Shown here: positions 2,527-64,000 of the stretch, piece by piece
Layout of the letters: every line of letters starts with the position of its first letter
How positions within the stretch are numbered: the first letter of the stretch is position 1
NCBI GenBank assembly: GCA_045535515.1
Contig: JAZSLT010000010.1
Location: 1,916-65,915, forward strand
Length of the DNA: 64,000 bases
From: Clostridia bacterium
GTDB lineage: Bacteria; Bacillota; Clostridia; UMGS1883; UMGS1540
Reading direction: 5' to 3'
Notes under the pieces: generated by a model
What the model saw: the letters and a program-made list of their open reading frames with translations, nothing else
The model's database searches: none
Told to the model about the DNA's origin: nothing
Program-made: the position numbers and the translations under genes

Positions 2527-3867
2527 ATGCAGAAGAATGACATTTTAACCGTTAAGATTATCGGTCAGGGCTGTGAGGGGGAAGGCGTTGCCAAAATGGA
2601 GGGCTTCCCCCTCTTTATCCCGGGTGCAATCCATGGCGAAGTGTGCCGTGTGCAGGTGGTAAAGCTTGCAAAAGGGCATGGCTTTGCCCGTCTTTTAGAG
2701 GTGGCCGAGCCATCCAAGCATCGCGCCGCGCCGCCTTGTCCCGTGTACACAAAATGCGGCGGCTGCAGCCTTATGCACATGGATAGAGAGGCGCAGCTTT
2801 TGTGGAAACGCGCGCGCGTGAAGGAGGCCTTTCGCCATATCGGCGGCATGGCGGCCACGGTTGCGCCTGTGGAAACGGACGGACGCACCACAGGATATCG
2901 TAATAAAATACAAATGCCGGTAGCGGCGATTAGAGGGCGCATCGCGGCCGGCTTTTTTGCGCCTCGCTCCCACCGCATCGTGCCTTGCGAGGGGTGCCTT
3001 TTGCAATCGGAAAAGACAGGGGAAATTATCCGCACCATCACGCGCTGGATGGAAGAAAACCATATCGCGCCCTACGAGGAGGAAACGCATTGCGGGCAGG
3101 TGCGCCATATCTTCGTGCGCGAAGGGGACGGCGGCGAATGTATGGTCTCCCTCATCACGCGCACGCGCACGCTTTCGGCGACCCGGGAGCTTACAGAGGC
3201 GCTCCTTAAAAAAGGCGTTACTACCATTTTGCAGAACATAAACCCCGCGCGTACCAATGTCATTTTAGGCGCGGAAACGCGCGTTTTATACGGAAGCGGC
3301 AAGGTGCAAAAAAGCCTTGGCGACCTCACCTTTTCCGTTTCGCACCATTCCTTCTTTCAAGTCAACGCACCCATGGCCGAGCGGTTGTACGAAAAGGGAC
3401 TTTCCCTTCTCGGCGATATTGCCGACAAAACGGTTTTCGACCTGTACTGCGGCATCGGCTCCATCTCCCTCTTTTTAGCGAGGCGGGCGAAAAAGGTCAT
3501 CGGCGTTGAAATCGTACCCGAGGCTGTTCGCGATGCCGAGGAAAATGCCCGCCGAAACGGCATAGACAACGCCGTTTTCTATGCAGGCGATGCCTTCGAA
3601 GTAACAAAGGCCTGTATGGAAAAGGGCGAGCGCGCTGATATCGCGGTGGTAGACCCGCCACGAAAGGGCTGCGACCCCCGGCTCCTCGAAACGCTTTTTT
3701 CGATGCGGCCGGAGAAAATATTGTATATTTCCTGTAACCCGGCCACCCTCGCGCGCGACGCAAAGGCTTTGGCCGAAAAAGGCTATCGCATCGGCACCGT
3801 GTATCCTTTTGATTTATTTCCGAACACAAGCCATGTGGAGTGCGTCGTGCGACTATGTCGCACATAA
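2527..3867 (+). CDS. rlmD: 23S rRNA (uracil-C5)-methyltransferase RlmD/RumA family (TRAM domain, 4Fe-4S cysteines, SAM MTase)
   Basis: 446 aa. N-terminal TRAM domain, a CxxxxxCGGC cysteine cluster, a class I SAM-binding motif (DLYCGIGSISL) and the C-terminal catalytic Cys region. Confidence 0.8.
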   Translation: MQKNDILTVKIIGQGCEGEGVAKMEGFPLFIPGAIHGEVCRVQVVKLAKGHGFARLLEVAEPSKHRAAPPCPVYTKCGGCSLMHMDREAQLLWKRARVKEAFRHIGGMAATVAPVETDGRTTGYRNKIQMPVAAIRGRIAAGFFAPRSHRIVPCEGCLLQSEKTGEIIRTITRWMEENHIAPYEEETHCGQVRHIFVREGDGGECMVSLITRTRTLSATRELTEALLKKGVTTILQNINPARTNVILGAETRVLYGSGKVQKSLGDLTFSVSHHSFFQVNAPMAERLYEKGLSLLGDIADKTVFDLYCGIGSISLFLARRAKKVIGVEIVPEAVRDAEENARRNGIDNAVFYAGDAFEVTKACMEKGERADIAVVDPPRKGCDPRLLETLFSMRPEKILYISCNPATLARDAKALAEKGYRIGTVYPFDLFPNTSHVECVVRLCRT

Positions 3868-4012
3868 GACGCATCGATATAAATCTCTTACGAGATTTTC
3901 GATATATCCTAAAGGATTCGATATGTGCCAAGGCACTCGATATGTTTCCTTCGGAAACGAGCAAGGCGAGTATGTCGCACACAACACGCATCGATATAAA
4001 TCTCTTGCGCGG
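3843..4012 (+). repeat. CGATAT box/hairpin array (family A, locus 1) with an internal ~40-bp direct repeat
   Basis: TCGATAT boxes start at 3874, 3899, 3918 and 3937 (spacing 25, 19, 19 bp). Each is followed by a different short hairpin: aaatctc/gagattt, atcc/ggat, gtgcc/ggcac, gtttcc/ggaaac. The segment 3843-3883 is repeated at 3972-4012. Confidence 0.7.
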
Positions 4013-4082
4013 CTTTCGGTTGTTCCGTGCATCGCACAAAAAGAGGCAGAAAAAACAATCCCTCCGCGTTTGCTACGCAAAC

Positions 4083-4112
4083 CCGCCTCCCTTTACACAA
4101 GGGAGGCTTTTT
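4083..4112 (+). terminator. intrinsic terminator hairpin (gcctccc...gggaggc + T-run), likely for rlmD
   Basis: A GC-rich 7-bp stem followed by TTTTTATTT. Confidence 0.5.
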
Positions 4113-4139
4113 ATTTGCACACGGAAGCATTCAAAATTA

Positions 4140-4178
4140 AGAAAGAAATCCGCTGTAAGGCGGATTTCTTTCTTATTC
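4140..4178. terminator. hairpin aagaaagaaatccgc-tgtaa-ggcggatttctttctt (first copy)
   Basis: A 15-bp stem flanked by A-rich and T-rich runs. An identical copy lies at 4353-4391. Confidence 0.5.
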
Positions 4179-4249
4179 GTTTTTATTTTGTTTTTACCTT
4201 GTGGGGTCTGTGCAGTTTTTGGGGGCGAAAGAAAAGTGTGCAGATTGTG

Positions 4250-4329
4250 CAAACTGAGCGAAAACAAGGCGTAGCCTTGTTTTCGGTTACCCGAAAGCGT
4301 ACATGGGTACGCTGAGTGGCGAAGTTTGT
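4250..4329 (+). ncRNA. three-way-junction structured repeat, copy E1 (unclassified RNA-like element)
   Basis: P1 caaact/agtttg. P2 cgaaaacaaggc-gta-gccttgttttcg. Conserved acccgaa(a)g linker. P3 cgtac-atgg-gtacg. Conserved gagtggcgaag. Confidence 0.45.
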
Positions 4330-4352
4330 GCAAACCACAAGGCGTTCAGATT

Positions 4353-4391
4353 AAAAAAGAAATCCGCTGTAAGGCGGATTTCTTTCTTCTT
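4353..4391. terminator. second copy of the gaaatccgc...gcggatttc hairpin
   Basis: Same stem sequence as 4140-4178. It follows E1 after an AAAAAAG run. Confidence 0.5.
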
Positions 4392-4466
4392 AATTTCTTA
4401 TTCCATTTTTGCCTTGTGGGTTCTGCGCAGTTTCTTGTGGGGATGGAAAAAAAGATGCAGAATAAA

Positions 4467-4540
4467 CGAACTGAGCCGAGCGAGCTTACTCGCGAGGGAT
4501 ACCCGAAGTCGTACATGGGTACGACGAGCGGCGAAGTTCG
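4467..4540 (+). ncRNA. three-way-junction structured repeat, copy E2
   Basis: P1 cgaact/agttcg, a compensatory change relative to E1. P2 cgagcgag-cttac-ctcgcgag. Conserved acccgaagt. P3 tcgtac-atgg-gtacga. Conserved gagcggcgaag. Confidence 0.45.
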
Positions 4541-4564
4541 TTTAGAGCTTATGGGCATAAAAAA

Positions 4565-4595
4565 GTAGAAATCTGCAAAAATTGCAGATTTCTAC
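4565..4595. terminator. hairpin gtagaaatctgc-aaaaatt-gcagatttctac following E2
   Basis: A 12-bp perfect stem flanked by AAAAAA upstream and a T-rich tail downstream. Confidence 0.45.
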
Positions 4596-4689
4596 ATAAA
4601 GTTACTTGTTATGGTATTTTCTACATTTTAGAAATGTTAAAAACTTGCCCATAAGCGGTCAGCGCTTTTTTTACATTCCCAGCCCCGAT

Positions 4690-6513
4690 TTATTCGGGCA
4701 TGATAATAATTGCCGTCGCCTCATACGCCCCGCTGGAGGTAAGGCCTGTTACGGAAACCTTCATGCCGGTTTTGAGGTCCTTCACGGTCCTTGCAGAGCC
4801 GTCACCACTATCAATAACCTTGAGGTTTGCGCGTTTGGTGAAGACCGTCAGCGTCGAGGTTGCGCCGTTTTCATCGAGTGTGGCCAGCGTGAAGAAGCCA
4901 TACGAGGTGTTAATCGTTTCAATCGTACCGGTGATGGCCGCTGTGGTGGCCGGCGCCGTGCTGGTAAGGCTCGTTACCGTTTCGCTGTCAACGCTTGCGC
5001 TGATGGAGGCGCCGAGGCGCAGGTCATAAATCGTGCCTTCCTTGCCGTCCACGGTGTAGACGCAATCGCGCGATAAGCTATAGGTGCTCACAGCGTTGTT
5101 TGCGCGGATTTTAATGGCCGGAAGCTTGGCAATAATAATTTCCTCAATCGTGCCTTGTGTGATAAACTTGCTGCTGGTAGCCGTTACGGTGGCTACTCTT
5201 TCGTAGCGAAGGAGTACGGTAACCTTATCGCCGACGAGAATCTGGTCGGCCTCTGCGGAGGCGCCGTTTCTTTTCGCCACTACACTTTCCGCTACCTGAT
5301 AGGTTTCCACCTCGCCGTTTGTAAGGCGGATGGCATAGGAAAGCACAGGCTCCAGCGTAATATTTTCAATCGTACCTTTAATGTTTCGTTCGCTTTCCTC
5401 GGCTTCAATCACCACGACCTCGCCCGCGCGAATCTGCAGCTTTACGGCCTGCAGGCGTTTTAAATCAGAAATCGTGCCTGCGGTGCCCTCATAGGTGATA
5501 GCAGCTTCGTCCGAAATCGGATAGGTAAATTCCTCCTCGTCGTTATCTATGGCAAATACCGTGATTTTCTTTTCGCGGCCGGTGGTGACGACAGAAGAAA
5601 TGGCACCCTCAAATATCTCGTCCGGTTCTCTTGTGATGGTATCTATGCCATACAGAACTTCATCGCGCAGCGTAAGTAAAAGCTCGGAGCCTAAGGCGAT
5701 GCGGGAGAAATCCTCGCTATAGCCGTCCTGCTTTATGAGCGGCTTTGTTCCTACGGCTGTGCTAATCTGTGCTTCTTCCCCTTCCTCTGTCAGGAAAGTA
5801 ATGGTTTCCAGCTCGCTGTCAACCTCTTTCACCGTACCCAGCACATAGGTTTCCTTCATTTTGCCGCGCAGGCGATACAAAAGCGTGGCAATCTGCGCGC
5901 GGTTTACCTCTTCCATGGGGCCGAACAGGCCGTCGCCCATGCCGTTCATCAGTTCCTCATCCGTTACATAGCGCACATACGGCTTTGCATCGGCGGGGAT
6001 ATCCGCAGAGTCTTTATATTCTCCGGTGGAGGCATCGAGGTCCACCTTATTGCCCGCGCCCATAACGCGTGTTAAGAGCTTGGCCACCTCGTAGCGCTTC
6101 ATACCGGTCGAAGCATTGTCGCCCCCGATATAGAAGGACAGTTCCTTCTCCGTCAGCACTTCCTTATACAGGAGGAAGGCAACCTCGCTTTCATAAGGTG
6201 TATCATACTTTTCTAAAATGTCCGCATAAAACTCGGTGGCAAAGGCAGAAAAGGAGCTGAGCGTTTCATTGGTAAAGCCCAAGATACGCGCACTTAAAAC
6301 CAATGCCTCGATTTTGGTAACGGTGCGTTCCGGCTTAAAGGTGTTATCGGTGTAACCCTTAATAATGCCGTCCTCCACCATTTCCTCTACCGCATCCAGC
6401 GCCCAACCGTAGCTGTCTTTGGTAACATCGGGGAAGGTGGCCGCCATTGCAGACAGGCCCATTGTGCCTAAAAGTATAGCCGCGAGTACTACGCAAATCA
6501 ACTTTTTACTCAT
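4690..6513 (-). CDS. S-layer homology (SLH) domain cell-wall-anchored protein
   Basis: Signal peptide, then three SLH-like repeats (FPDVTKDSYGWALDAVEEMVEDGIIKGY, etc.) ahead of a long extracellular region. 607 aa. Confidence 0.7.
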   Translation of the reverse strand: MSKKLICVVLAAILLGTMGLSAMAATFPDVTKDSYGWALDAVEEMVEDGIIKGYTDNTFKPERTVTKIEALVLSARILGFTNETLSSFSAFATEFYADILEKYDTPYESEVAFLLYKEVLTEKELSFYIGGDNASTGMKRYEVAKLLTRVMGAGNKVDLDASTGEYKDSADIPADAKPYVRYVTDEELMNGMGDGLFGPMEEVNRAQIATLLYRLRGKMKETYVLGTVKEVDSELETITFLTEEGEEAQISTAVGTKPLIKQDGYSEDFSRIALGSELLLTLRDEVLYGIDTITREPDEIFEGAISSVVTTGREKKITVFAIDNDEEEFTYPISDEAAITYEGTAGTISDLKRLQAVKLQIRAGEVVVIEAEESERNIKGTIENITLEPVLSYAIRLTNGEVETYQVAESVVAKRNGASAEADQILVGDKVTVLLRYERVATVTATSSKFITQGTIEEIIIAKLPAIKIRANNAVSTYSLSRDCVYTVDGKEGTIYDLRLGASISASVDSETVTSLTSTAPATTAAITGTIETINTSYGFFTLATLDENGATSTLTVFTKRANLKVIDSGDGSARTVKDLKTGMKVSVTGLTSSGAYEATAIIIMPE

Positions 6514-6571: not shown

Positions 6572-8965
6572 TCAACTATTTTCGTGCGAAAATACAATTT
6601 TTTTGCGTTTTTTCCCTAAAAGGAAAAGCAAAATAATTGCCGTTCCCGTAGAGAGCGCAAGTCCCGTATAAAAGCCGGGGGAAACGAACCGTATCTCGAT
6701 GTGCGAGGTTCCTGCCGGCACCACAAACGAAAGGTAGGTGTCCATATAGGCAGAGGTCTCGGCCTTTTTGCCGTTGATTTTTACCGAGAACCCCTTTGTA
6801 CGGGGGATAGATGTAAAGACAAGGCTCTCTTTTTCCGTGTCGATATTGGCCGAGAGGCCTGTGCTCTTCTTTTGTACATCGTAGAAAGCTTCTTTTTGCA
6901 GCTTCGCGATGCTGTCCTTATAAGCCGCTGTGTCTAAATACTGCAAAAACATGGTGGTCAGCGGCACTTTTTTATTGTTTAGCGCCTTGACCTCTATTTC
7001 TACCTCCTCACCCGGCGCAAAGGTGCCGAGATATAAATTTATTTTGGTTTCCCGCGTGAAATAATGCGCGTGGAAAATATCGTTTACATATACCTCACAG
7101 ACATCCTCTTCCTCGCCGTCCATATAAAGATACACAGGCTCGCTGTTTGGCGCGGTGAAGGTAATGGTCGTGACGGTTTTCTTCGCGTTACTTTTCTTTC
7201 TGTATTCTATCGGATAAAAGATATCCTGCTCGATACCCGACAGGCACTCTATAAGCACATTCTGGTTTTTAAACGGATTGGCCGAAGAAAATTCGCCCAT
7301 ATCCATATTCCGGTCGGCCACAAAGCCCATCGGCAGCACATAGTCGTTTTTGTACAGCGTTTTGCTGTTATAATGCTTTTTTTCGGTATAAAATTCTTCG
7401 CTTCTTTCGCTTTTGGCCATAATGTATTTTACGCCCAGAATACTGTCCGTAACCGGCGTGGAGCCAAAATAAGAGTTCCAGAAAAATGCCTGCGCCATGC
7501 CTGCATTTTTCGTGAAGGTGTTAATGTTCTTATTATTATGGGAAGAAAAGTGTGTGATGCCATGATAACCGAGGAGCATGGAATCGTTCTTCGAATACTC
7601 GTAATCCTTTTCCACGCGGAAGAGGCCCTCGGTATCCTTGGTGACTTCACTTAAAAACCCGCTCGTTTCATCGCAAAAATCCTTGTAATCGGTAAATTTT
7701 TTATAAGTAAACTCTCTGTCCAGTCCCATAAGCATAACCTTGGAATTGTGGTACATCGTGCAGCTGAGCAGAAAAATGAGAAAAATGCAAATCGCGCTCT
7801 TGAAAACCGGCTTCAGCCGTATTTCCATATGCGCAAACTGCATATACGCCATAAAGACCATGAAAAAGCTGAAAAGAAAGGCATAGCGGTAGGGGAACCA
7901 GTTCGGCGTCTGAAACCCGTGCCAGACCTCATCGAGCGGCACCACCCAAAAGCTTACAACGAACAGGCCGATGATAGCGCCTGCCATCACCTTCGCCTTT
8001 GTCACGATTTTCGGGTTAAAGAAGAAGGCTATGGCCAGACAGGTAACGCCCACGCCGCAGAAAATGGCCGGCAGGCCGCCGTTCATGATGCTATCGTAAA
8101 AATTCGGCGTTAATTTCCGGAAGATATCCATAAAGGGGAAATTGAAGGTTTCGGGATTTTCCCAGCCGGCACCCTTGGTCGTTAAGTCCACCACCGTCGG
8201 CACAATCAGCCACGCGCTAAGGCCAATACCGGCCAGCGCGGACAGGGCAATCTTCACAAAATTTTGCCAAAGTGCCTTCGTTTCCTTTATTCCATGCAGC
8301 CAGAACCACCGGTAAAAGTAATACATCACACAGAAAACGGAAACGGAAAAGGCAAGATAATAGTTACAGATAAACACGGCCGCAATGCTCAGGATAAAAA
8401 GCGTGCCACGCCCTTTTCGGATAATATATTCTATGCCGCACAGAATAAGCGGCAGCAAAATGACGGCATCCAGCCACATCAGCGACAGGGAATAGACGAG
8501 ATTATAGCTCATCAGGGCGTAGGCTGTCGTAAAATACAGCTTAAAGGCACGGTTTTCGTCGAAGGCCTTGTCTAAATAGATGGAAAGCGTCACCCCGCAA
8601 AGGGAGATTTTGATAATTGTTAAAAGTAGGATGCCCAGCGGCAGGGTGTCGGTGCTAAACAGCACGGTGATAAAGGACAGGGGGCTTGCCAGATAATAGG
8701 CAAAAAGGCCGATGTAATTTTGGCCCATTCCCTTCTCCCAGGAGAAAAACAGGCTGGTATCGCCGCTGAAAAGGCCCTTTAGGGAGGAGAAAAAATGTAC
8801 ATACTGGTCGTTCATATCCATAATCAGGAGCGACCGCTCTCCAAACGGATAAAACCCCATAACGCGCAGTACAAGCGTTAATATGACCGCCGGCAAAAGA
8901 AAGGCCAGCGCGTGATAAAGATATTTTATTTTCGTATGCTTTTGCCCGAGCTTTGCGTTTTTCAT
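6572..8965 (-). CDS. YfhO-family polytopic membrane protein (glycosylation of teichoic acid-type polymers)
   Basis: 797 aa with many TM helices. The N-terminal region and length match the YfhO family, and it sits beside a GtrB/CsbB-type GT2. Confidence 0.7.
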   Translation of the reverse strand: MKNAKLGQKHTKIKYLYHALAFLLPAVILTLVLRVMGFYPFGERSLLIMDMNDQYVHFFSSLKGLFSGDTSLFFSWEKGMGQNYIGLFAYYLASPLSFITVLFSTDTLPLGILLLTIIKISLCGVTLSIYLDKAFDENRAFKLYFTTAYALMSYNLVYSLSLMWLDAVILLPLILCGIEYIIRKGRGTLFILSIAAVFICNYYLAFSVSVFCVMYYFYRWFWLHGIKETKALWQNFVKIALSALAGIGLSAWLIVPTVVDLTTKGAGWENPETFNFPFMDIFRKLTPNFYDSIMNGGLPAIFCGVGVTCLAIAFFFNPKIVTKAKVMAGAIIGLFVVSFWVVPLDEVWHGFQTPNWFPYRYAFLFSFFMVFMAYMQFAHMEIRLKPVFKSAICIFLIFLLSCTMYHNSKVMLMGLDREFTYKKFTDYKDFCDETSGFLSEVTKDTEGLFRVEKDYEYSKNDSMLLGYHGITHFSSHNNKNINTFTKNAGMAQAFFWNSYFGSTPVTDSILGVKYIMAKSERSEEFYTEKKHYNSKTLYKNDYVLPMGFVADRNMDMGEFSSANPFKNQNVLIECLSGIEQDIFYPIEYRKKSNAKKTVTTITFTAPNSEPVYLYMDGEEEDVCEVYVNDIFHAHYFTRETKINLYLGTFAPGEEVEIEVKALNNKKVPLTTMFLQYLDTAAYKDSIAKLQKEAFYDVQKKSTGLSANIDTEKESLVFTSIPRTKGFSVKINGKKAETSAYMDTYLSFVVPAGTSHIEIRFVSPGFYTGLALSTGTAIILLFLLGKKRKKIVFSHENS

Positions 8966-55606: not shown

Positions 55607-56389
55607 ATGAAAATATTGGTTTTTGCGGACCTTCACTACTATAGCGGCACCGAGCCGAAATTTGACACGAGTAAAAAGCTTGTGCAGTATGCCGACGCGA
55701 TGCTGCAGGCGCTTATTAAGAAGGCAGAGGAAGAAAAGGTCGATTTTGTTGTCAATCTGGGCGACAGTATTCAGGATAACAACGATAAAGAGGGCGACAA
55801 GGAGAGCCTTCGCCTTGTTTTCGAGAGACAAAAGGCGTTTCCCTGCCCGTGCTATACGGTACTCGGTAATCACGATATGAAAATGATGGACAGTAAAAAG
55901 GAGGTCGAGGCCATTTTAGGGTATGAAACGACCTATAGCTTTGACAGGGGCGGGTATCATTTCGTGTTTCTGACAACGGATGTCGATACGGAAAAGGACT
56001 TTTTGCGCGGCGGCATACACAGAACTTGGGTGCTCCCCGAAAAGACGCTCCGCTGGCTCGAAATCGATTTAGAGAAAAACACGCTGCCGTGTATCCTTTT
56101 TACCCACTTTGCCTTAGCGGAGGACGAAAGCATTACGGACGAATGTCTGTTCCTCAAAAACAGAAACGAGGTGAAGGCCGTTTTGGCCCGCCATGACAAT
56201 ATAAAGGCCGCCATCTGCGGCCACCAGCATATAGGAAGGGTACATAAAGAGGGCGGTATTCCCTATTATCTCATCGCATCTCCCACGGCGGCGGAGGAGG
56301 ACGCGCCGGGTGTGCCGTGCGGCGCGTATGCGATTTTGGAAACCGAGGGGGAAGAAGTTACGGTTTTGGAGAAACGCATCCGGCTGTAA
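55607..56389 (+). CDS. calcineurin-like metallophosphoesterase
   Basis: Motifs (ADLH, GDSIQD, GNHD and GHQH) in order. 260 aa. Confidence 0.7.
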   Translation: MKILVFADLHYYSGTEPKFDTSKKLVQYADAMLQALIKKAEEEKVDFVVNLGDSIQDNNDKEGDKESLRLVFERQKAFPCPCYTVLGNHDMKMMDSKKEVEAILGYETTYSFDRGGYHFVFLTTDVDTEKDFLRGGIHRTWVLPEKTLRWLEIDLEKNTLPCILFTHFALAEDESITDECLFLKNRNEVKAVLARHDNIKAAICGHQHIGRVHKEGGIPYYLIASPTAAEEDAPGVPCGAYAILETEGEEVTVLEKRIRL

Positions 56390-56390
56390 T

Positions 56391-56480
56391 GGAGCTAAAT
56401 TGACCTTCGGTCAGCTAAATTGCCTGCGGCAGCTAAATTCGCCTTGCGGCGAGCTGAATGTGCTTCGCACGCGAAATTAT
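56391..56480 (+). repeat. AGCTAAATT box/hairpin array (family C)
   Basis: AGCTAAATT-gacc-ttc-ggtc, AGCTAAATT-gcc-tgc-ggc, AGCTAAATT-cgcc-ttgc-ggcg, AGCTGAATG-tgc-ttc-gca, CGCGAAATT. It starts 2 nt after the phosphoesterase stop codon. Confidence 0.65.
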
Positions 56481-56490
56481 GGCAGACATT

Positions 56491-56530
56491 AAAAAAGGAT
56501 GGAATGCTTTTGCATTCCATCCTTTTTTGC
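56491..56530. terminator. bidirectional terminator (aaaaaaggatggaatgc-ttt-tgcattccatcctttttt)
   Basis: A 14-bp stem flanked by A6 and T6 runs, between convergent genes. Confidence 0.65.
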
Positions 56531-56538
56531 TATACAGA

Positions 56539-57012
56539 TTATTTTACATTTCCCTTTTTAATCTTGAGGCCGTAATAGATATACGCGGCAATCAGATAGA
56601 TGGCCAGGCAGACATAAAGGAAATTAAAGCGCGCGAGTGTGGTAGCTTCTCCGCCGATAGGAAGGAAGGGGATTTTAGATAAAAGCCCTGCCAGAAAAGC
56701 GGTAATGGTGCCATGCAGGATTTCGCGCATGAAGAAAGCGGCTACGGCAAAATAGGGGATAAAGAACAGCCATTTTTTGTCCTTTTTAACAAAGAACAGA
56801 ACGAGCATTGCCGCCACGCCCAAAACGCCGAGCCATCCGATGGCGAGAATGAGAATTCTGGTTTGTTCCGCATAAATGGAAACGAACCAGTTGTACAAAA
56901 AGAGGAGCAGCATCGCCGACACGAGGGCGATGGCCGTGGCCGTTACAATTTTGTTATCCAGAGCTTCACGAGCTTCGCGGGAAAGCTTCGTCTTTGGTTT
57001 TTCCTGTTTCAT
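56539..57012 (-). CDS. hypothetical polytopic membrane protein
   Basis: 157 aa with 4 predicted TM helices. No recognisable motifs. Confidence 0.4.
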   Translation of the reverse strand: MKQEKPKTKLSREAREALDNKIVTATAIALVSAMLLLFLYNWFVSIYAEQTRILILAIGWLGVLGVAAMLVLFFVKKDKKWLFFIPYFAVAAFFMREILHGTITAFLAGLLSKIPFLPIGGEATTLARFNFLYVCLAIYLIAAYIYYGLKIKKGNVK

Positions 57013-57353
57013 AAGAGACCTCCTAAAATGTTATATGAACTATTATACCTTTTTTGCCCGGCAAAGTCAAATCTTTTTGGAAAAAATTATGCGCGCTTCT
57101 TTTGGGCGGGAGATGCGCGCCGCGCGCCCGATGGCGGTGCACAAAACACGCGAGGGACAGGTGCGCAAAAGATGAAGTGGTGAAAAAGAAAACGAGGCGG
57201 TATACTGGGCTTGTCGGCAGGGGAACGGAAAAACGGCAAAGCCGCAAACTGTCCCGAAAACACAAAGTTTATTTGAAAGAAGAGAGGCGGGCTACCATAG
57301 CGGAGATGCCGACCGCTTTTTCTGCCGAATAAAACGAAAAAGGGGGTGAAACC

Positions 57354-59000
57354 ATGCAAAACAAAAAAAGAATACGCCAGAGCCTGATGAGCGAGGAGAA
57401 AAGGGAGCTGGCAAAAAAGTACCGGGATTTTTATCTTCGTGCATGGCAGGACAAGGCGCGCAGGGGACTGGGAGAACGCTTTGCGCTTTACGAAGCCTAC
57501 TGGGAGGGCGATGTAAACCTGCCCGAGTCGGAGAATGACCCGGGAAGCAGCACGAACATTGTCCACGCCAATGTGGAGGGGCAGGTGTCGCTGCTTTTGG
57601 AGCAGAGCATCGGGATACTGCCCGTACCCGTAACGCCTGACGATGCGCCCTTTGCGAAAACCGTGCAAAAGGTGCTGGAGTTTGTCAAGGAAAAAAACCG
57701 CCTGACGCGAAAGCTCGACCTGCACGAGCGGCGCAGAGAAAAATACGGAACCGGAATTTTTCGCGTGTCGTTTGACCCGGCGGCGCTCGATGGGGCGGGG
57801 CTGCCGGTTATTGAGGCGTGCAGTCCGCAGAACATCTTTGTAGACCCGGGTATTACCGATGTTTACCGCACCGAGGAGGCGGCCTTCATTATTGAAACGG
57901 TTTGCAAAACGGTACATTGGGCGAGAAGACAGTACGGCGATGCGGTGGCAGATGCCATTGTGCCGGGGTACAGACCGCAGTTTGAAGGAGAAGAAGGCGG
58001 CGAGGACACCTATTTGCACATGCTGGTCTGGACGAAGGAAGGGGGTAAGCTTCGTCTGGTGGAAATGACAGGCTGCGGCCTGATTTTATCCGACAGCTTT
58101 GAAGAGGGCGAAACCGATTTTTATCCGGGCGGGCGGTATCCTTACTTTTTCACCCCCCTTTACTACCGCGAAGGCTCCATCTGGGGCAAAGGGGATGTGG
58201 AGCTGCTGATTCCGCTGCAGGACCTTATCAACGACCTCGACGACCAAATCCGCATCAATGCACGCCTTACAGGCAATCCGCAGCGCCTGATTGAAACGGG
58301 CAGCGGCATTGATTTAGATGCTATGACAAACGAGGCCGGCCTGAACATTCCCACCACGAGTGTTTCGGCCGTGCGGAATCTGGAGGCACCGCCGCTTCCG
58401 GCATACATTCTCCAGCGGCGCGACACCGCCCTTCGCTACGAGAGCCAGCGCGTCACCCGTTTTTCCGACCAGATGACGGGTGCCAAGCAGGCAGGCGTAA
58501 ACACCGCTTCCGAGGCGATGGTGCTCCAGCAGGGCGGGCAGATGTCCATCCAGCACAAAAAGCTTCTCCTCCAGGAAACGCTTTCCGAGGTCTTTGCCTA
58601 CTGTCTCGAGATGATTCGGGCGTACTGGACCGAGGAGGTGGCCGTTCGCCTGACGGACAAGCCGACGGAATTTATTTTCTTCCGCGGCAGCGACCTTCGT
58701 GCCATAAGCCGAAGAGGCGGCGGCACGAAGGAGGCGGCATTTGACCTTGTGGTGACGGTGGGCGCAGGCCTTCCCACCAACAAGGCGGCGGCGTACCAGA
58801 TGATGAGCGACCTGTACGCCAAGGGGCTTGTAACGCCCCACGAGGTGCGCGCGTTTTTGGCGGACTATTTTGGTCTGCCGCTGGGAGAGGCGCCGGCTGA
58901 AGTGGATGAAGGCGGAAAACAGGCGGAAAAAGGCGCCAAAATCGAACATGCGGCGGCAGAAGGACTTTCGGCAGAAGGCGCGCCGCGCCGCAAGCGGTAA
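57354..59000 (+). CDS. putative phage portal protein
   Basis: 548-aa acidic protein that opens a scaffold + capsid module. The size, composition and position fit a portal. The assignment is by context, not by a recognised motif. Confidence 0.45.
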   Translation: MQNKKRIRQSLMSEEKRELAKKYRDFYLRAWQDKARRGLGERFALYEAYWEGDVNLPESENDPGSSTNIVHANVEGQVSLLLEQSIGILPVPVTPDDAPFAKTVQKVLEFVKEKNRLTRKLDLHERRREKYGTGIFRVSFDPAALDGAGLPVIEACSPQNIFVDPGITDVYRTEEAAFIIETVCKTVHWARRQYGDAVADAIVPGYRPQFEGEEGGEDTYLHMLVWTKEGGKLRLVEMTGCGLILSDSFEEGETDFYPGGRYPYFFTPLYYREGSIWGKGDVELLIPLQDLINDLDDQIRINARLTGNPQRLIETGSGIDLDAMTNEAGLNIPTTSVSAVRNLEAPPLPAYILQRRDTALRYESQRVTRFSDQMTGAKQAGVNTASEAMVLQQGGQMSIQHKKLLLQETLSEVFAYCLEMIRAYWTEEVAVRLTDKPTEFIFFRGSDLRAISRRGGGTKEAAFDLVVTVGAGLPTNKAAAYQMMSDLYAKGLVTPHEVRAFLADYFGLPLGEAPAEVDEGGKQAEKGAKIEHAAAEGLSAEGAPRRKR

Positions 59001-59037
59001 CCTTTTTACCGGCGGACGAGAAGGAAGGAGAAAAGGG

Positions 59038-59271
59038 ATGCAGATTTATTTACCCGAGGCCGTTGCGCGGAGAATGCGGCGGCATGCGTATTTACAGAGC
59101 ATTGACATCGAAAAGCTGCGCGACAACCCCGTTTGTCCGCGCTGCGAGAGGGCGGCGCTTCGCGACAAGGGCTGGTCGGAGGAGAAAATCGGCCATTGTC
59201 CCTATTGCGGACACCGCGGCCCCATGCCGGTAACGGTGGGAGAATATGCAGCGAAGGCGCTGTATAAGTAA
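59038..59271 (+). CDS. small zinc-ribbon protein (CPRC...CPYCGH)
   Basis: 77 aa with two CxxC pairs. Good RBS (GGAAGGAG). Confidence 0.4.
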   Translation: MQIYLPEAVARRMRRHAYLQSIDIEKLRDNPVCPRCERAALRDKGWSEEKIGHCPYCGHRGPMPVTVGEYAAKALYK

Positions 59272-59289
59272 AGAAAACAGGAGGAAATT

Positions 59290-60042
59290 ATGGCAAAAAC
59301 AAAAAAGCGTCCTAAGCCGCAGGACAAAAAAACGGCGGCAGGCGTCGGCACAGCCTCGAAAATCGCGCAGGCGGAGATGGCGGAGGAGCTTCTCTTCACG
59401 CTTTCCGAGGATGCACAAGAGGCAGAGGCCGAAACAGAAACGGCAAAAGAGGTGGAAGATACCGCGAAGGAAGGCGCAAAAGCGGAAGAGGCCGAGGACA
59501 AGGAAAAGGCGGAAATGCTGGCCATATTAAAACGGCTCATGGACGATATGGGCGTCAGCGGTATGGCGGCGCTCGTCGAGAAGATTGACGAGGCCGAGAA
59601 GAGAAAGCTGGTCCGCTCCTATGGTCTTGACGAGGCGGCGGCCGCTCTCTTTTTAGAGCAGCAGGAGAAGGTGCGGGCGCTGCGCGAGGCCAAGGAGAAG
59701 GCCGTGCGCGAGGCGATGTACGCCGAGATGCGCAAAAACCCCTTCTATGCCGATGTGGACAGCCGAAGAGAAGCGCTCGAAGCCTTTATTCTCCGCACAG
59801 GCACCACGCCCCGCGAGGCGTACGGCGCCCTGTTTGCCGAGGAGAGAATGGAGAAAATGGTACGCGAGATGGAAGAAAAGAAGAGCGCGGCCGAGAAAAA
59901 GGCCAAGCATATTCCGGCGCTTTCCGGTGGCGATGCGCCGGAAAATGAAGGCTACAAAAAGCTTTCGGAGGCTGAAAAGTGGGCGGCGGAGCGTGCGGGT
60001 ATGACGCCGCAGGAATACGCCCGCTACAAGTATGCGTATTAA
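59290..60042 (+). CDS. putative phage scaffolding protein (Ala/Glu/Lys-rich coiled coil)
   Basis: 250 aa, highly charged and helical, immediately upstream of the capsid gene. Typical scaffold position and composition. Confidence 0.5.
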   Translation: MAKTKKRPKPQDKKTAAGVGTASKIAQAEMAEELLFTLSEDAQEAEAETETAKEVEDTAKEGAKAEEAEDKEKAEMLAILKRLMDDMGVSGMAALVEKIDEAEKRKLVRSYGLDEAAAALFLEQQEKVRALREAKEKAVREAMYAEMRKNPFYADVDSRREALEAFILRTGTTPREAYGALFAEERMEKMVREMEEKKSAAEKKAKHIPALSGGDAPENEGYKKLSEAEKWAAERAGMTPQEYARYKYAY

Positions 60043-60058
60043 AAAATAAGAAAGGAAA

Positions 60059-60985
60059 ATGAAAATGGCAACAAAACTTGAAAGAAGTAATTTTGCGGCG
60101 CTTTTGACGCCGGTACACAGAAAGGTGTTTTTTGACACCTACAACAAGAAGAAAAAGCAGTATACCGAAATTTTCAAGGTAGACGAAATGCACGCGAAGG
60201 AAGAATCCTTCCCGCATCTCGGCGCTTTCGGCAAGTGGGCGGAAAACGCGGAAGGAAATGATTTTAATGTGGCGGACATCGCACAGGGCGATATTGCCAC
60301 CTTCACCGCCCGCCGCTTTGACAAGGCGTATGAGGTGACCTGGGAGCTTGTACAGGATGACCTTTACAATGTGATGAAGGGAAGTGGCCGAGGCGGCAGC
60401 GCCTCCAAGCTCGGCAGCGGACTCCAGGCGACCGAGGAATCGCAGGCCGCCCGCGTGATTTTGGACGGCTTTACCGAAAACGGCTACGATGGCGTACCGC
60501 TGTTTTCGGCAAATCATCCGCTGGTAAACGGCACGGAAAGCTGTTCTAACCTCGTGGAAGGTGCGCTGACGGACGAGAAGCTCAAGGAAGCGCTGACCAG
60601 AATGCGCCTTCAGAAGGACGAGGCCGGCGTGCTTGTTGCCGCGCATGCGGACAAGCTGGTTGTACACCCCGATTGGGAATTTACGGCCCGCGCTCTCGTT
60701 GGCTCCACCTTACAGGCAGGCACAGCCAACAACGATAAGAACACCATTCCGCACCTTGACATTGTGGTATGGGATTATCTGTATGACGGCACGGATACAA
60801 ATAAGCCGTGGTTTGTACAAGACGGCAGCATGGACAACCTGATGTTCCTGTGGCGCGAAAAGCCCATCTTTGACAGCGAAAAGATTGACAACAAGATGGA
60901 CTATCGCTTCTACGGATACTGCCGCTTTGACACAGGCTATGTGGATTGGCGCGGTCTTGTCGGCTCTACGGGCAAAAGCGAATAA
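60059..60985 (+). CDS. putative phage major capsid protein
   Basis: 308 aa, following the scaffold gene with a strong RBS. Assigned by position and size only. Confidence 0.45.
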   Translation: MKMATKLERSNFAALLTPVHRKVFFDTYNKKKKQYTEIFKVDEMHAKEESFPHLGAFGKWAENAEGNDFNVADIAQGDIATFTARRFDKAYEVTWELVQDDLYNVMKGSGRGGSASKLGSGLQATEESQAARVILDGFTENGYDGVPLFSANHPLVNGTESCSNLVEGALTDEKLKEALTRMRLQKDEAGVLVAAHADKLVVHPDWEFTARALVGSTLQAGTANNDKNTIPHLDIVVWDYLYDGTDTNKPWFVQDGSMDNLMFLWREKPIFDSEKIDNKMDYRFYGYCRFDTGYVDWRGLVGSTGKSE

Positions 60986-61008
60986 GGAAAAGGGAAGGAA
61001 GTGAGAAT

Positions 61009-62604
61009 ATGCGTGTATCCGAAATTTTAAACGAGGGTGTAGAGCAGTTTTTGTCAATCGCACCTTCCACAGTAGCGCACATGGAGGACACGGATAATCC
61101 CCATGCGGTGACGAAAAAGACGATAGGGCTTGAAAATGTTACCAACGACCTGCAGGCCAAGGATGCCGACTTCCGTTCCCACAAAGAGGCGGCAGAGCTT
61201 GACCATCCGGACGGCAGCGTGACAACAGACAAGCTGGCCGCGGCGGCGGTGAAAACAGAGAAGCTCGCAAGCGGCGCGGTGACGGCGGAAAAAATAGCCG
61301 AGGGCGCCGTGGGCGGTGATGCACTCCGGGAGGGGTGCATCCGGCCGGAGCACCTCGCCGGCAACCTGAAAACAACCCTTTCCGAGAAGGTGGACACAGT
61401 GAAGGGGATGGGCCTTTCGCAAAACAGCTTTACCGATGCGGAAAAAGCGAAGCTGGGTGCTATAAAGGTGGTGGACGAGGAGACGCACACGCTCGACACG
61501 GCGACGCTGGTGCTGAAGGGGCAGGAGCTTGTGCTGCACAAGGAAGGACATCGGTATACCTACGAAGGAGAAACGGTGCTGGACAGGAATGTCACCAGTT
61601 TTATTTCGGCAGACACCGATGAGGTGAACGGCAATATGATGGTGGCCTATCGGGACAGAGACAATATTTATACCGTTTCCTGGCTTTATGGGGGAGACAA
61701 GAAATGGTACACATTCAAGCTGCCGGAAAACACCTCCTGTCACACCATGTATCAGGGCACCCTTTATTATGTCGTTTTAGAAGGAAATGTGGCGAAGGTA
61801 GAAAGACGGACCCATATCAATGCGGTGCACGATTGGGGAAGCTATACACTGGCAAGAACGGGAACGATAGAGGTGAAGGGTGTTTTTGCAAAGGACGATT
61901 CCGTTCGCATTGTCTATTGGGAACATGGGACAAGCTATACAACCTTGTGCGTGGAGAAGTTCAAAAAGAGCACAGGAGAGCAGGAATGGATTTACACCAA
62001 AAATATGACAAAAAAAGCAAAATTTACGCCGCCTCCTGCCGATGCCGACACGATTTACGAAAGCCGCGTGCGCATGGTGACACATGATGCATCGGACGAC
62101 CTGTATGTGGCAATGGTGCTTCCCTCGAGCCAGAAATACGCCGTTGTGCGTATCGACATAAACGGCGAAGTAAAGGGCGAATACTTCCCAATCGAAAGCA
62201 ATCATGACGGCTATATTTTTCAGGACCTTGCTGTTGTGGACAAAAAGATTTATGCCTTCGCCCGCTCACGGCTGATGATGGCCGATATGGAAACGGGCGC
62301 AACGGTTATGGCGTGGCGGCACAACAGCCAATGCCTCCGAGGCATCAATGTTGACCCCGAAGGGGAAATCTACCTGATGATGGAAAGCACGGCCGGCGTC
62401 ACAAAATTGTATCGCTTTAAAGGAAACCGGGAAATGGAATGTAATATCAATGAGGCGGCAAACACCTATCCGCAGAAAATAGACGGACGATATCTGATAG
62501 CGCGATATCTCGATGGCAAGATGTATTTATTCCATATACCGGAAGGAACAGAGAAGCTTATGATGACCACCTACACGGCCGATACGGTGTACAGCATATT
62601 GTAA
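61009..62604 (+). CDS. phage structural protein with N-terminal tail-fiber-type tandem repeats and a C-terminal beta-propeller-like domain
   Basis: Repeats VTTDKLAAAAV / KTEKLASGAV / TAEKIAEGAV (phage fibre repeat type). The C-terminal 300 aa has recurring aromatic/beta-strand blocks. Start at MRVSEIL (61009). Confidence 0.45.
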   Translation: MRVSEILNEGVEQFLSIAPSTVAHMEDTDNPHAVTKKTIGLENVTNDLQAKDADFRSHKEAAELDHPDGSVTTDKLAAAAVKTEKLASGAVTAEKIAEGAVGGDALREGCIRPEHLAGNLKTTLSEKVDTVKGMGLSQNSFTDAEKAKLGAIKVVDEETHTLDTATLVLKGQELVLHKEGHRYTYEGETVLDRNVTSFISADTDEVNGNMMVAYRDRDNIYTVSWLYGGDKKWYTFKLPENTSCHTMYQGTLYYVVLEGNVAKVERRTHINAVHDWGSYTLARTGTIEVKGVFAKDDSVRIVYWEHGTSYTTLCVEKFKKSTGEQEWIYTKNMTKKAKFTPPPADADTIYESRVRMVTHDASDDLYVAMVLPSSQKYAVVRIDINGEVKGEYFPIESNHDGYIFQDLAVVDKKIYAFARSRLMMADMETGATVMAWRHNSQCLRGINVDPEGEIYLMMESTAGVTKLYRFKGNREMECNINEAANTYPQKIDGRYLIARYLDGKMYLFHIPEGTEKLMMTTYTADTVYSIL

Positions 62605-62617
62605 CGGAGGCGGAAGG

Positions 62618-62842
62618 ATGAATGAGATAACGATAGCCGGCCTTTCCTTTTTGGGAACCTGTGTGGGAACGGTGGGCGGCATACTGACGGCGAGCCGTCT
62701 GACAAACTATCGCCTCGAGCAGCTGGAAAAAAAGGTGGCCAAGCATAACAATCTGGTGGAACGCATGGCCTGTGCGGAGGAGAGCGTGAAAAGCGCACAC
62801 CGCCGCATTGACGAAATCAAGGAGGAGGTACTGCATGGATAA
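62618..62842 (+). CDS. BhlA/UviB/XhlA-family holin-like protein
   Basis: 74 aa: one N-terminal TM helix followed by a coiled coil. First gene of an XhlA-XhlB-amidase-type lysis cassette. Confidence 0.55.
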   Translation: MNEITIAGLSFLGTCVGTVGGILTASRLTNYRLEQLEKKVAKHNNLVERMACAEESVKSAHRRIDEIKEEVLHG

Positions 62843-63014
62843 ACGATGGAAAAGCCCGATTTTATGGGCATCGTGTCTTGCGCTCTTCGCCTTTGTGATG
62901 AAAACCTGGGTGGGATGGGAAATTCCGCAGTTTGATACATTTGCGGAGCTTCTTTTGGCGGCGCTTGCGGCGCTGGGCGTTATCAACAATCCCACCGACA
63001 GGGAGCATTTTTAA
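62835..63014 (+). CDS. phage holin (SPP1/XhlB-type, two TM helices)
   Basis: 59 aa with two TM helices and a charged C-terminus. ATGGATAA overlap with the upstream gene and a GGAGGAGG RBS. Confidence 0.55.
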   Translation: MDKRWKSPILWASCLALFAFVMKTWVGWEIPQFDTFAELLLAALAALGVINNPTDREHF

Positions 63015-63033
63015 AAAGCAGGAGGGGAACGAG

Positions 63034-63648
63034 ATGCAAATAGCCTACAACAAAACCGAGAGAAAGGAAAAGCCGCGCTACATCGTGGTACACACGACGG
63101 GAAACACCCGAAAGGGTGCGGATGCGGCGGCGCACTTTTCGTACTGGAACAGCAAAAATGTAGGGCAGAGCGCCGATTTTGTCGTAGACGAAAACGGGGC
63201 GCTCCAGATAAATGATTACACAAAATATTATACATGGCATTGCGGGGACGGAAAGGGGCGCTACGGCATAACCAACCAGAACTCTATCGGGGTGGAAATC
63301 TGCGTAAACGAGGATGGCGACTTTTCGCGCGCGCTCGAGCATACCGTTGCCCTTTTGCGAAGGCTGAAGGGGGAAACGGGAATAGAAAATGTGGTGCGGC
63401 ATTACGACGCCTCCCGTAAAATGTGCCCCGCGGCCCTGGCTGAAAACGATTGGGAAAAGTGGAAGGAGCTGAAAAGAAAAGTGGCAGAGGTAGAGGAACT
63501 GACCAGCGTAAACGACATCGTTTGGGAGCTGGGAGAGAGAGGCGTTATTACAGATGCCGCCCTCTGGCTTCGAAAGCTGGAAGAGGATGAAAATGCGTAC
63601 TGGCTGGCGCGAAAGTGCCTGCGCTATATGAGGGGGAGATGTGTGTGA
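63034..63648 (+). CDS. N-acetylmuramoyl-L-alanine amidase (amidase_2/PGRP domain) endolysin
   Basis: YIVVHTTGN, HCGDG and ...ICVNEDGD blocks typical of amidase_2 Zn amidases. Follows two holin genes. Confidence 0.75.
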   Translation: MQIAYNKTERKEKPRYIVVHTTGNTRKGADAAAHFSYWNSKNVGQSADFVVDENGALQINDYTKYYTWHCGDGKGRYGITNQNSIGVEICVNEDGDFSRALEHTVALLRRLKGETGIENVVRHYDASRKMCPAALAENDWEKWKELKRKVAEVEELTSVNDIVWELGERGVITDAALWLRKLEEDENAYWLARKCLRYMRGRCV

Positions 63649-64000
63649 GAGTAGGAGAAATTCTGGCCGATGTGAAAACGAGAATGCCGAATGCCTTTGA
63701 AGAGGATACGCTTATACGGTGGCTGGACAGCGCCGTACGGGAGCTTTACAAGGTGCTGGGTGTGCGCGAGGGCTTTACCTTCCGCGCCATGGGCGGTCAG
63801 ACGATATATCCTATCCCGACCGACATATGTGCGGGTGGCATCAGCGCCGTGGTAGTCGGCGGAAAGGAAATAGCGGCGCGGCGCATCGGCGATGCAAACG
63901 GCATCGGCTGGTTCGGGGCCACGGAGGGCTTTATCGGGCTGTACCCGAGCCCGGGGCGAGGGGAAAAGATAACGATATGGTATTATGTGCGCCCCGCACG
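63645..64000 (+). CDS. phage gp6-like head-tail connector protein (partial, runs off the window end)
   Basis: GTG start overlapping the amidase stop, with an AGGGGGAG RBS. N-terminal helical region, then ...IYPIPTD...ISAVVVGGKEI... and ...ITIWYY, the pattern of Phage_connect_1 proteins. Not in the ORF track because it is truncated. Confidence 0.45.
   Translation, partial: MRVGEILADVKTRMPNAFEEDTLIRWLDSAVRELYKVLGVREGFTFRAMGGQTIYPIPTDICAGGISAVVVGGKEIAARRIGDANGIGWFGATEGFIGLYPSPGRGEKITIWYYVRPA

Follow-up and report, generated by a model that had tools for sequence, protein, structure and literature searches.

The DNA analysed here is a 64,000-nt window on contig C22 (C22:1916-65915) of the Clostridia genome G000, which comprises 1.55 Mb in 42 contigs and is 96.8% complete. 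At the end of the window lies a compact row of phage-like genes, locus A, which begins at window position 57354 and runs past the window end to the equivalent of position 66644 (C22:59269-68559, 9,291 bp), the contig extending 6.6 kb past the window. These genes encode a portal, a capsid, a fibre, a lysis cassette and the parts of a short, podovirus-type tail. Together with a large terminase gene (TerL) that we found at a second locus on another contig, locus B, they probably constitute a domesticated particle system resembling a gene transfer agent (GTA). Relative genomes are labelled G002-G021 and so on, contigs C and sequence stretches L, with g1 denoting the source genus and g3 a sister genus. 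The source family (f1) was sampled with 22 species genomes from 10 genera, including G000, and the order with 87 species genomes in 3 families. Scans with Pfam and PHROG profiles covered all open reading frames (ORFs) from window position 49987 to the contig end as well as locus B and its flanks; the Pfam cut-offs were 30 bits for PF23899 and 27 bits for PF24175.

Gene content and boundaries of locus A

All genes of locus A stand in a single row on the (+) strand, with spacings of -34 to +37 nt (Table 1). An original prediction, made from the letters of the window, had named head, fibre, lysis and connector genes tightly packed on one strand, and the profile matches agree with it. Portal and capsid are phage-related, as it supposed, with matches to SU10_portal/P22_portal and to Mu gpT-like/Phage_capsid_4 profiles, respectively. 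The connector, which had been called gp6-like, is indeed present as a head-to-tail adaptor, though of the SU10 type (PF24175). The tail nozzle, encoded beyond the window, was recognized from its predicted fold: the AlphaFold model (confidence score pLDDT 90.4) found the Pa223 tail as its top Foldseek match (9nwi_Y, E = 2e-21, template-modelling (TM) score 0.82), followed by P22 gp10 (8eap_D, E = 1.6e-18). It also resembles Sf6, SU10 and T7 gp12 proteins, the podovirus-nozzle matches ranging from E = 2e-21 to 1e-13 with TM scores of 0.6-0.8. The SU10/P22-type portal, the SU10-type adaptor and the gp10-like nozzle are thus those of an SU10/P22-like podovirus structural module. Because the tail is of this short podovirus type and the cluster contains no sheath or tube genes, the earlier suggestion of a PBSX-like particle had to be abandoned.

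The lysis genes (62618-63648) are embedded between the capsid gene (60059-60985) and the adaptor gene (from 63615), exactly as predicted. The first of them encodes a 74-amino-acid (aa) protein, 72-82% identical within the genus, to which the name XhlA-like can be applied by architecture, namely a membrane segment and a coiled coil, this likeness being its sole basis. It is followed by a holin candidate (54-71% identity within the genus) and by an amidase, the start of which was set where the relatives begin to align, at residue 35-36 of the long ORF. The gene ahead of the cassette had been described as a fibre/propeller protein. The tail-fibre PHROGs that match its N-terminal part agree with the first half of this description, whereas a propeller is not supported for this protein, which evolves fast (34-45% identity within the genus).

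The most conserved gene of the cluster encodes a zinc-ribbon protein of 77 aa with 87-94% identity within the genus. Homologues follow TerL in the sister genera and adjoin the portal in free phages, and Pfam, PHROGs and a protein atlas returned only weak or generic zinc-ribbon leads. The predicted zinc-ribbon gene is therefore real, but it occupies the frame 59038-59271, and the 56-aa ORF at 59063-59233 that had been taken for it is spurious. Two further ORFs near locus A, of 113 and 168 aa, are spurious as well. The scaffold-like protein matched no family in Pfam, PHROG and further scans; its C-terminal part is conserved at 29-42% in sister genera and free phages. For the 330-aa protein that ends the cluster (model pLDDT 89) there was no PDB match at E <= 0.001, and its N-terminal domain bears a weak likeness to the copper amine oxidase N1 domain.

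Table 1. Features of locus A, its divergent neighbour and the terminase of locus B. Plain positions refer to the window; C and L positions refer to contigs and sequence stretches.
Feature	Position	Strand	Basis
157-aa membrane protein, 3-4 membrane segments, divergent from the portal gene	56539..57012	-	hydropathy
Portal, SU10/P22 type, 548 aa	57354..59000	+	PF23899 SU10_portal E 2.2e-12 (46.7 bits); PF16510 P22_portal E 1.4e-6; phrog_156 E 5.9e-25
Zinc-ribbon protein, 77 aa, two CxxC pairs	59038..59271	+	frame set by comparison with relatives
Scaffold-like protein, 250 aa	59290..60042	+	position between portal and capsid genes; charged helical make-up; homology to the same-position gene of related phages
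Major capsid protein, 308 aa	60059..60985	+	PF10124 (Mu gpT-like) E 2.5e-16; PF25209 (Phage_capsid_4) E 9.4e-14; phrog_371 E 2.6e-20
Tail fibre / receptor-binding candidate, 531 aa	61009..62604	+	phrog_892 E 4.9e-11 and other tail-fibre PHROGs, N-terminal part only
74-aa protein, N-terminal membrane segment and coiled coil; first gene of the lysis cassette	62618..62842	+	phrog_1863 E 7.7e-16; hydropathy
Holin candidate, 59 aa from internal Met, two membrane segments	62835..63014	+	phrog_297 holin E 3.5e-4; hydropathy
N-acetylmuramoyl-L-alanine amidase endolysin, 204 aa from conserved start	63034..63648	+	PF01510 (Amidase_2) E 9.5e-19; phrog_3088 E 1e-33
Head-to-tail adaptor, SU10 type	63615..64000, on to window-equivalent 64256 (L002 8531-9172)	+	PF24175 SU10_adaptor E 6.2e-12 over the full gene (46.8 bits)
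Tail nozzle, 460 aa	L002 9169-10551, beyond the window	+	predicted fold and Foldseek
330-aa coiled-coil protein	L002 10568-11560, beyond the window	+	small beta domain, then a 127-residue helix
Large terminase TerL, 441 aa from conserved start	C38:51843-53228		phrog_979 E 7e-48

Host genes bound the cluster on both sides. The upstream neighbours are an NTP-transferase/PGM fusion gene, a YetF-family gene, recG, a metallophosphoesterase gene and then a (-) strand membrane protein gene, the last three of which the original prediction had already noted. Downstream, the host spoIIIAH-AG-AF-AE-AD/AC-AB operon (SpoIIIAH, PF12685, E = 1.3e-38) converges on locus A from the opposite strand. Neither at locus A nor at locus B did the Pfam and PHROG scans detect an integrase, a replication gene, a repressor switch or an excision gene. 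The same scans and a tRNA search, applied to C22:57000-72571, found no terminase, integrase or tRNA at the cluster, in line with what had been claimed for the window. The prediction had also considered that a terminase and an integrase might lie just downstream, as in a permuted but otherwise standard prophage; neither was found past the window, and the lone TerL is on another contig.

The gene next to the portal on the upstream side encodes a membrane protein of 157 aa that matched no Pfam or PHROG family. It is portal-adjacent in 8/8 genus relatives examined (57-75% identical), although the other flanks differ, and is absent beside the cluster in genus g3. A strong sigma-70-type promoter matching at 11/12 positions precedes it at 57070-57042 (-). 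This protein is possibly part of the element.

The terminase locus and the promoter-like blocks

Locus B (C38:51165-53343, 2,179 bp) consists of a 58-aa gene, TerL and a 221-aa gene and is located, judging from the contig geometry, at least about 55 kb from locus A. A terminase-family search of the whole G000 genome yielded one Terminase_6N match and no match to TerL_ATPase or Terminase_3. The P-loop of TerL is invariant across the aligned relatives. The 58-aa gene lies directly upstream, overlapping the TerL start, and is 57-83% identical in seven relatives. Its product matched no family, and tblastn searches of G000 with the gp3-type and helix-turn-helix (HTH)-type small terminases (TerS) of sister genera gave no match. 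Directly downstream of TerL is the tail-like 221-aa gene, whose homologues in sister genera and free phages are flanked by the nozzle and 330-aa genes. Flanking genes are asnA/matE on one side and a NifU-like/GGGtGRT pair on the other; two (-) ORFs of 262 and 347 aa, considered as locus B genes, proved to be antisense artefacts of this pair.

The NifU-like and GGGtGRT-family genes (PF14057, E = 2e-196; L040 10493-12258, (+) strand) are 94-97% identical across the genus, far above the other genes compared. Homologues of the pair are also found about 3 kb upstream of TerL relatives in two contigs of unrelated Clostridia metagenome-assembled genomes (MAGs), L095 and L102. Just past the GGGtGRT gene, a 340-aa protein (L040 12312-13334, (-) strand) combines an HTH-like N-terminus, a histidine-kinase-type ATPase and a C-terminal DUF4325 STAS-like domain; it matches phrog_3364 (E = 8e-10) and is not conserved at that place in three relatives compared.

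Upstream of the portal, a promoter-like block is conserved in an alignment of 8 genus members (57149..57210, (+) strand) and ends in a TATACT box at 57201-57206. The block is without a sigma-70 -35 consensus, and no sigma-70 consensus site was found on the (+) strand in 56300-64000. A like box precedes the start codon of the 58-aa gene at locus B by about 30 nt. When the blocks of the two loci are aligned on their TAT(A/G)CT box, TGC(C/A) boxes fall, by eye, at the same three offsets upstream of it, which suggests one regulator for both loci as far as inspection of the aligned blocks can tell. Sister genera keep an Xre/ImmA pair beside the cluster, namely in G017 and G009, the former together with a sigma-like DUF1492 gene; no repressor or anti-repressor is present at either G000 locus. 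In G006 (contig C15, L015 1669-3049), an ImmA/IrrE-type M78 peptidase gene and two Xre-type HTH genes directly follow the 330-aa gene, and no counterpart of these genes was seen beside either locus of G000.

Conservation, gene order and free-phage relatives

Portal homologues were present in all 22 family genomes, whereas the capsid (68-89% identity) and TerL were each found in 21. Across the order, the capsid profile matched 22 of 87 genomes; excluding G000, these were 20/21 in f1, 0/1 in f2 and 1/64 in f3. Portal identity to G000 declines with taxonomic distance and exceeds that of RecG at every level: 80-86% vs 59-72% within the same genus, 71-72% vs 54-56% for genus g3, and 52-66% vs 43-47% for other genera. 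TerL identity declines along the same gradient. Non-synonymous divergence (dN), computed against five genus relatives, was 0.05-0.10 for the zinc-ribbon gene, 0.08-0.21 for the capsid, 0.10-0.16 for the portal and 0.12-0.14 for TerL, compared to 0.23-0.33 for RecG and 0.48-0.70 for the fibre. Ratios of dN to synonymous divergence (dS) are unreliable because synonymous sites are saturated (pS 0.6-0.8). Despite this saturated synonymous change, the cluster genes are all open in 7/8 genus relatives.

The divergence of the cluster also follows that of its hosts. In a Mantel test against RecG (17 rows including both G020 copies, with kin that are not independent), r was 0.75 for the portal and 0.61 for the capsid, and none of 2000 permutations reached values as high. 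A RecG tree from a careful search and a portal tree from a quick search only contained the same supported clades: G002+G004, G005+G007, G018+G021 with G010, and g1+g3.

Gene order differs within the family. In the six other genera examined (g2, g5, g6, g8 in part, g10 and g7 in part), TerL lies inside the cluster, and the genes run small terminase, (fibre, lysis), adaptor, portal, scaffold, capsid, TerL, zinc ribbon, nozzle, 221-aa-like and 330-aa-like gene, with the lysis genes at one or the other cluster end. The row in g1 and g3 consists, in this sequence, of portal, zinc ribbon, scaffold, capsid, fibre, lysis cassette, adaptor, nozzle and 330-aa gene, TerL being located on other contigs beside the 58-aa and 221-aa genes. 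A single rearrangement, older than the split of g1 and g3 and kept since, accounts both for the lysis cassette within the row and for the absence of a terminase from it. The original prediction had offered a rearranged element as one option, and rearranged the cluster is, relative to sister genera as well as to free phages. The version in G019 is 11.3 kb long and sits directly between host thiF and greA; it contains no integrase, primase/replicase or excision genes, and neither does the contiguous version in G017. A second copy, which has diverged further (49-51% identity for the portal), is present in both sampled genomes of g6 (G020:C74, L029+L191, and G013:C32, L026+L192). It is longer, with six small reverse-strand ORFs, a 973-1150-aa protein (LPD38 in the case of G020) and a collagen-like protein preceding holin and amidase; the parts examined contained no integrase.

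Free relatives of the cluster were found by scanning IMG/VR with a capsid alignment, which confirmed 35 of 108 candidate stretches. Three of these contigs, of 6.7-11.5 kb, have capsids 88-89% identical and hold just this cluster in the exact g1 gene order; in the other 32 contigs, capsid identity was 53-64%. Where there was enough flank, the contigs displayed a canonical order of TerL (47-51% identity), portal (36-53%), capsid, adaptor (24-31%), nozzle (20-30%) and 330-aa-like gene, and related phages also possess the zinc-ribbon protein (30-38%) and a 221-aa-like tail protein (35%). Five records of 41-46 kb were checked (G061-G065). Two of them, 42.9 and 41.6 kb long, end in direct terminal repeats and have a completeness rating of 100%, and two carry tyrosine integrases. 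A fully annotated record of 45.1 kb (93% complete) encodes a serine recombinase, cI/Cro, SSB, DnaB, a cytosine methylase, YopX and HNH proteins. Its structural set comprises TerL, portal, a zinc-ribbon homologue, scaffold, capsid and an SU10 adaptor, together with a pectate-lyase-like tailspike, a nozzle, the 221-aa-like protein, a 1023-aa LPD38 protein and an amidase. Judged by its genes, the family element corresponds to the structural, packaging and lysis portion of such a phage, at about a quarter of its size. The phages, roughly four times larger, have the recombinase or integrase, cI/Cro, SSB, DnaB, methylase, tailspike and LPD38 genes that are absent from the G000 loci, and their canonical order of TerL, portal, scaffold, capsid, adaptor, nozzle and lysis genes contrasts with the rearranged, split order in G000.

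The nearest isolated phage is Bacillus phage PK1, with 36% identity for the capsid and 24% for the portal. TerL relatives outside the family abound in MAGs of gut Clostridia: 561 out of 600 candidate stretches could be confirmed, and identity is 48-56% among the best 80 of the 561; none of the 70 such loci kept from this set has this type of portal or capsid. Three unannotated GenBank entries named 'Bacteriophage sp.' from human faeces (MT836159, MT836150 and MT836324) are 11-12 kb long, a size near that of these clusters, and encode portals of 22-23% identity.

Genus g12 of the sister family has a cluster of its own (L050 9770-19977 on G040:C29; L051 2742-14531 on G024:C8). It is ordered as small ORFs, TerL (37-43% identical), P22-type portal (21-24%), scaffold, Phage_capsid_3/4 capsid, a collagen/DUF6273 protein and a nozzle-like gene, and in L050 a LexA-like S24 repressor is encoded upstream of it. 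TerL and portal of this kind were each found in 17 of the 18 genomes sampled. This may be a second, separate GTA-like system with a gene order like that of FpGTA, the GTA of Faecalibacterium prausnitzii.

A probable GTA-like particle system and its alternatives

We regard locus A, with a probability of about 0.7, as the larger part of a two-locus, GTA-like particle system that derives from a podovirus, has been domesticated and is inherited vertically; its function we infer from its genes and their conservation. Phage-like structural, packaging and lysis genes reside in the chromosome between host genes on both sides, without replication or integration genes of their own; they occur family-wide and are more conserved than RecG. 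The GTA-like option of the original prediction fits these observations, whereas a defective prophage or a moron insertion, which it had also proposed, does not fit the conservation. The distribution, the conservation above RecG, the Mantel r of 0.75 and the congruent clades argue for vertical inheritance and purifying selection, qualified by the saturated dS, by non-syntenic flanks and by the portal of G008. An intact temperate prophage is not what was found: a contiguous integrase or recombinase, an immunity switch and a replication module are lacking, and all of these are present in the related 45-kb phage.

For a long time, to our knowledge, GTAs had hardly been recorded outside Alphaproteobacteria, apart from a few other cases, and just one gut GTA gene set, FpGTA, has been tied to particles. 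Particle sequencing in 2026 reportedly suggests that GTAs move much gut bacterial DNA. RcGTA of Rhodobacter capsulatus and other alphaproteobacterial GTAs are vertically inherited, multi-locus systems under purifying selection that cannot package their own full gene set. The G000 system resembles RcGTA in having vertically inherited, conserved, multi-locus phage-derived particle genes that would be too split for self-packaging. It differs in that RcGTA has a siphovirus-like long tail, an HK97-type head protease and a terminase inside the head-tail cluster, and in that neither the host phylum nor the regulators are related. PBSX combines a contractile tail, its own terminase in one locus and an XhlA-holin-amidase lysis cassette, and capsid-forming phage-inducible chromosomal islands (cf-PICIs) have integrase and replication genes and no tail. 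With both of these, the G000 system shares chromosomal phage-like particle genes without full phage autonomy. Unlike PBSX, it has a short podovirus-type tail and a terminase at a separate locus, and unlike cf-PICIs, it lacks integrase and replication genes and possesses adaptor, nozzle and fibre.

Among the papers listed by a literature search on podovirus-type GTAs, none was seen to describe this bacterial family's element. Going by its published description, FpGTA would be the closest known system. It is a podovirus-like, two-locus GTA with particles of about 40 nm containing 8.4-8.9 kb of host DNA (Borodovich et al., Nat Commun 2026, PMC12946183). Its operon I (10.5 kb) encodes a small terminase without a DNA-binding domain, TerL, portal, scaffold, capsid and short-tail parts, and its operon II (5.5 kb), about 125 kb away, encodes baseplate, fibre, receptor-binding protein, holin and endolysin (PMC12946183). 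Both systems are podovirus-like sets of gut Clostridia with terminase, portal, scaffold, capsid, short-tail parts, holin and endolysin, are distributed over two chromosomal loci and, as far as FpGTA has been described, have no replication or integration genes; the small terminase without a DNA-binding domain finds a possible equivalent in the 58-aa protein, which is a candidate only (PMC12946183). The division of genes differs: in FpGTA, TerS, TerL, portal, scaffold and capsid stand together and fibre and lysis genes form the second locus, whereas in G000 head, tail and lysis genes stand together and the motor and one tail gene are apart (PMC12946183). FpGTA is conserved across a genus and the G000 system across a family, and FpGTA particles and their packaged DNA have been demonstrated, whereas the G000 system is read from its genes (PMC12946183). 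The hosts differ too, that of G000 belonging to another, small order (87 species genomes). Further candidate GTA clusters have been described from mouse-gut Clostridia in a 2026 preprint (10.64898/2026.07.08.737213).

Several observations weigh against a domesticated GTA. TerL was not found in G006 (95% complete), the closest relative, and the capsid was not found in G016, whose portal ends a contig. In G008 (L137, C41), the portal (3198-4789) is broken, its two frames overlapping and containing two stops, and one stop lies in the fibre (6674-8482), the remaining cluster genes being open; this is either a real loss of function or an error of MAG assembly. Because the host genes flanking the cluster differ among species of the genus, the spoIIIA side being common only to G002, some mobility of the cluster is possible and a fixed ancestral site is not established. 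In g6, related elements may still be active, since second, larger copies occur there. An alignment of the 58-aa protein with the gp3-type TerS of sister genera comprised 13 C-terminal residues at an hhalign probability of 14%, which is not significant. Finally, G+C is 54.6% at locus A and 54.1% at locus B compared to 49.6% for the genome, a level reached by only 2% of 9.3-kb windows. In Alphaproteobacteria, GTA genes reportedly show a G+C bias.

Some of these points would be expected of an inert, decaying prophage remnant, the terminase locus then being an unrelated second remnant. The damaged portal and fibre of G008, the G+C above the genome mean, the lack of integrase, replication and regulatory genes and an order scrambled relative to free phages all agree with decay. 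We nevertheless consider a remnant quite improbable, as it leaves unexplained why portal, capsid and TerL persist in 22, 21 and 21 of the 22 family species, diverge less than RecG and stay open in 7/8 genus relatives at saturated synonymous divergence, and why the portal tree tracks the RecG tree while the TerL identity gradient equals that of the portal. Still less probable is a mobile phage satellite (a capsid-forming island) or a minimal temperate element that moves with the help of another phage. The differing host flanks and the second copies in g6 speak for movement, and the mouse-gut preprint compares a 12.7-kb terminase-capsid-lysis cluster to capsid-forming satellites (10.64898/2026.07.08.737213). 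The three short IMG/VR contigs that hold just this cluster point the same way, but they are metagenome predictions, not particle DNA. Against mobility stand the lack of integrase, primase/replicase and excision genes at both loci and in the contiguous versions of G019 and G017, the element's own tail of adaptor, nozzle and fibre, which capsid-forming satellites lack, the spread of its genes over two loci at least 55 kb apart and its family-universal, mostly single-copy occurrence that co-diverges with RecG.

A host-owned particle could also have a pay-off other than transfer, such as programmed lysis that releases the cell contents, killing of competitors, or repair or storage of DNA. A lysis cassette in the middle of the operon, conserved there in two genera, and a fast-evolving fibre, as expected for targeting other cells, would suit such a role, and DNA delivery is deduced here from gene content. 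The only experimentally studied system of this architecture, however, packages host DNA (PMC12946183), and an intact terminase with a conserved P-loop has been kept together with the portal, which would have no point unless DNA is packaged. We therefore regard a non-transfer role as unlikely.

For a GTA-like system, the genes suggest the following course of events. Upon a host signal, both loci would be transcribed from their similar promoters lacking the sigma-70 consensus. Portal, scaffold and capsid protein would assemble into a small procapsid, into which the terminase would package, a headful at a time, any DNA available; the 58-aa protein may be a small terminase subunit that has lost its DNA-binding domain. 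The particle would then be closed by adaptor, nozzle, fibre and accessory tail proteins, and holin and amidase would lyse the producer cell, so that particles could bring host DNA to related cells. With its genes divided between two loci far apart, the system could not be carried whole in such particles and would therefore propagate only with the chromosome.

A more specific version of this reading is tentative and, in our view, doubtful as a whole: an ancient podovirus-derived GTA confined to one small family of gut Clostridia, with the motor apart since before the two genera split, both loci in one host regulon through a shared promoter type lacking the sigma-70 consensus, and a small terminase of 58 aa without DNA binding. 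If it is true, domestication happened independently of that of FpGTA, the 14 genes in 11.5 kb represent a natural two-part minimal particle system, and the lack of a DNA-binding domain in a small terminase of 58 aa would explain why packaging takes no account of sequence.

These results caution that in annotation a head module without a terminase need not be a dead prophage. Portal, capsid and the 77-aa zinc-ribbon protein are markers by which producers may be recognized in particle-sequencing data, and the compact set of 14 genes lends itself to rebuilding such particles. For this family of ruminant-gut Clostridia, the two loci make up a family-wide and well-delimited GTA candidate with clear free-phage relatives and a dated rearrangement that relocated the terminase, and thus a test case for how a phage loses its autonomy.

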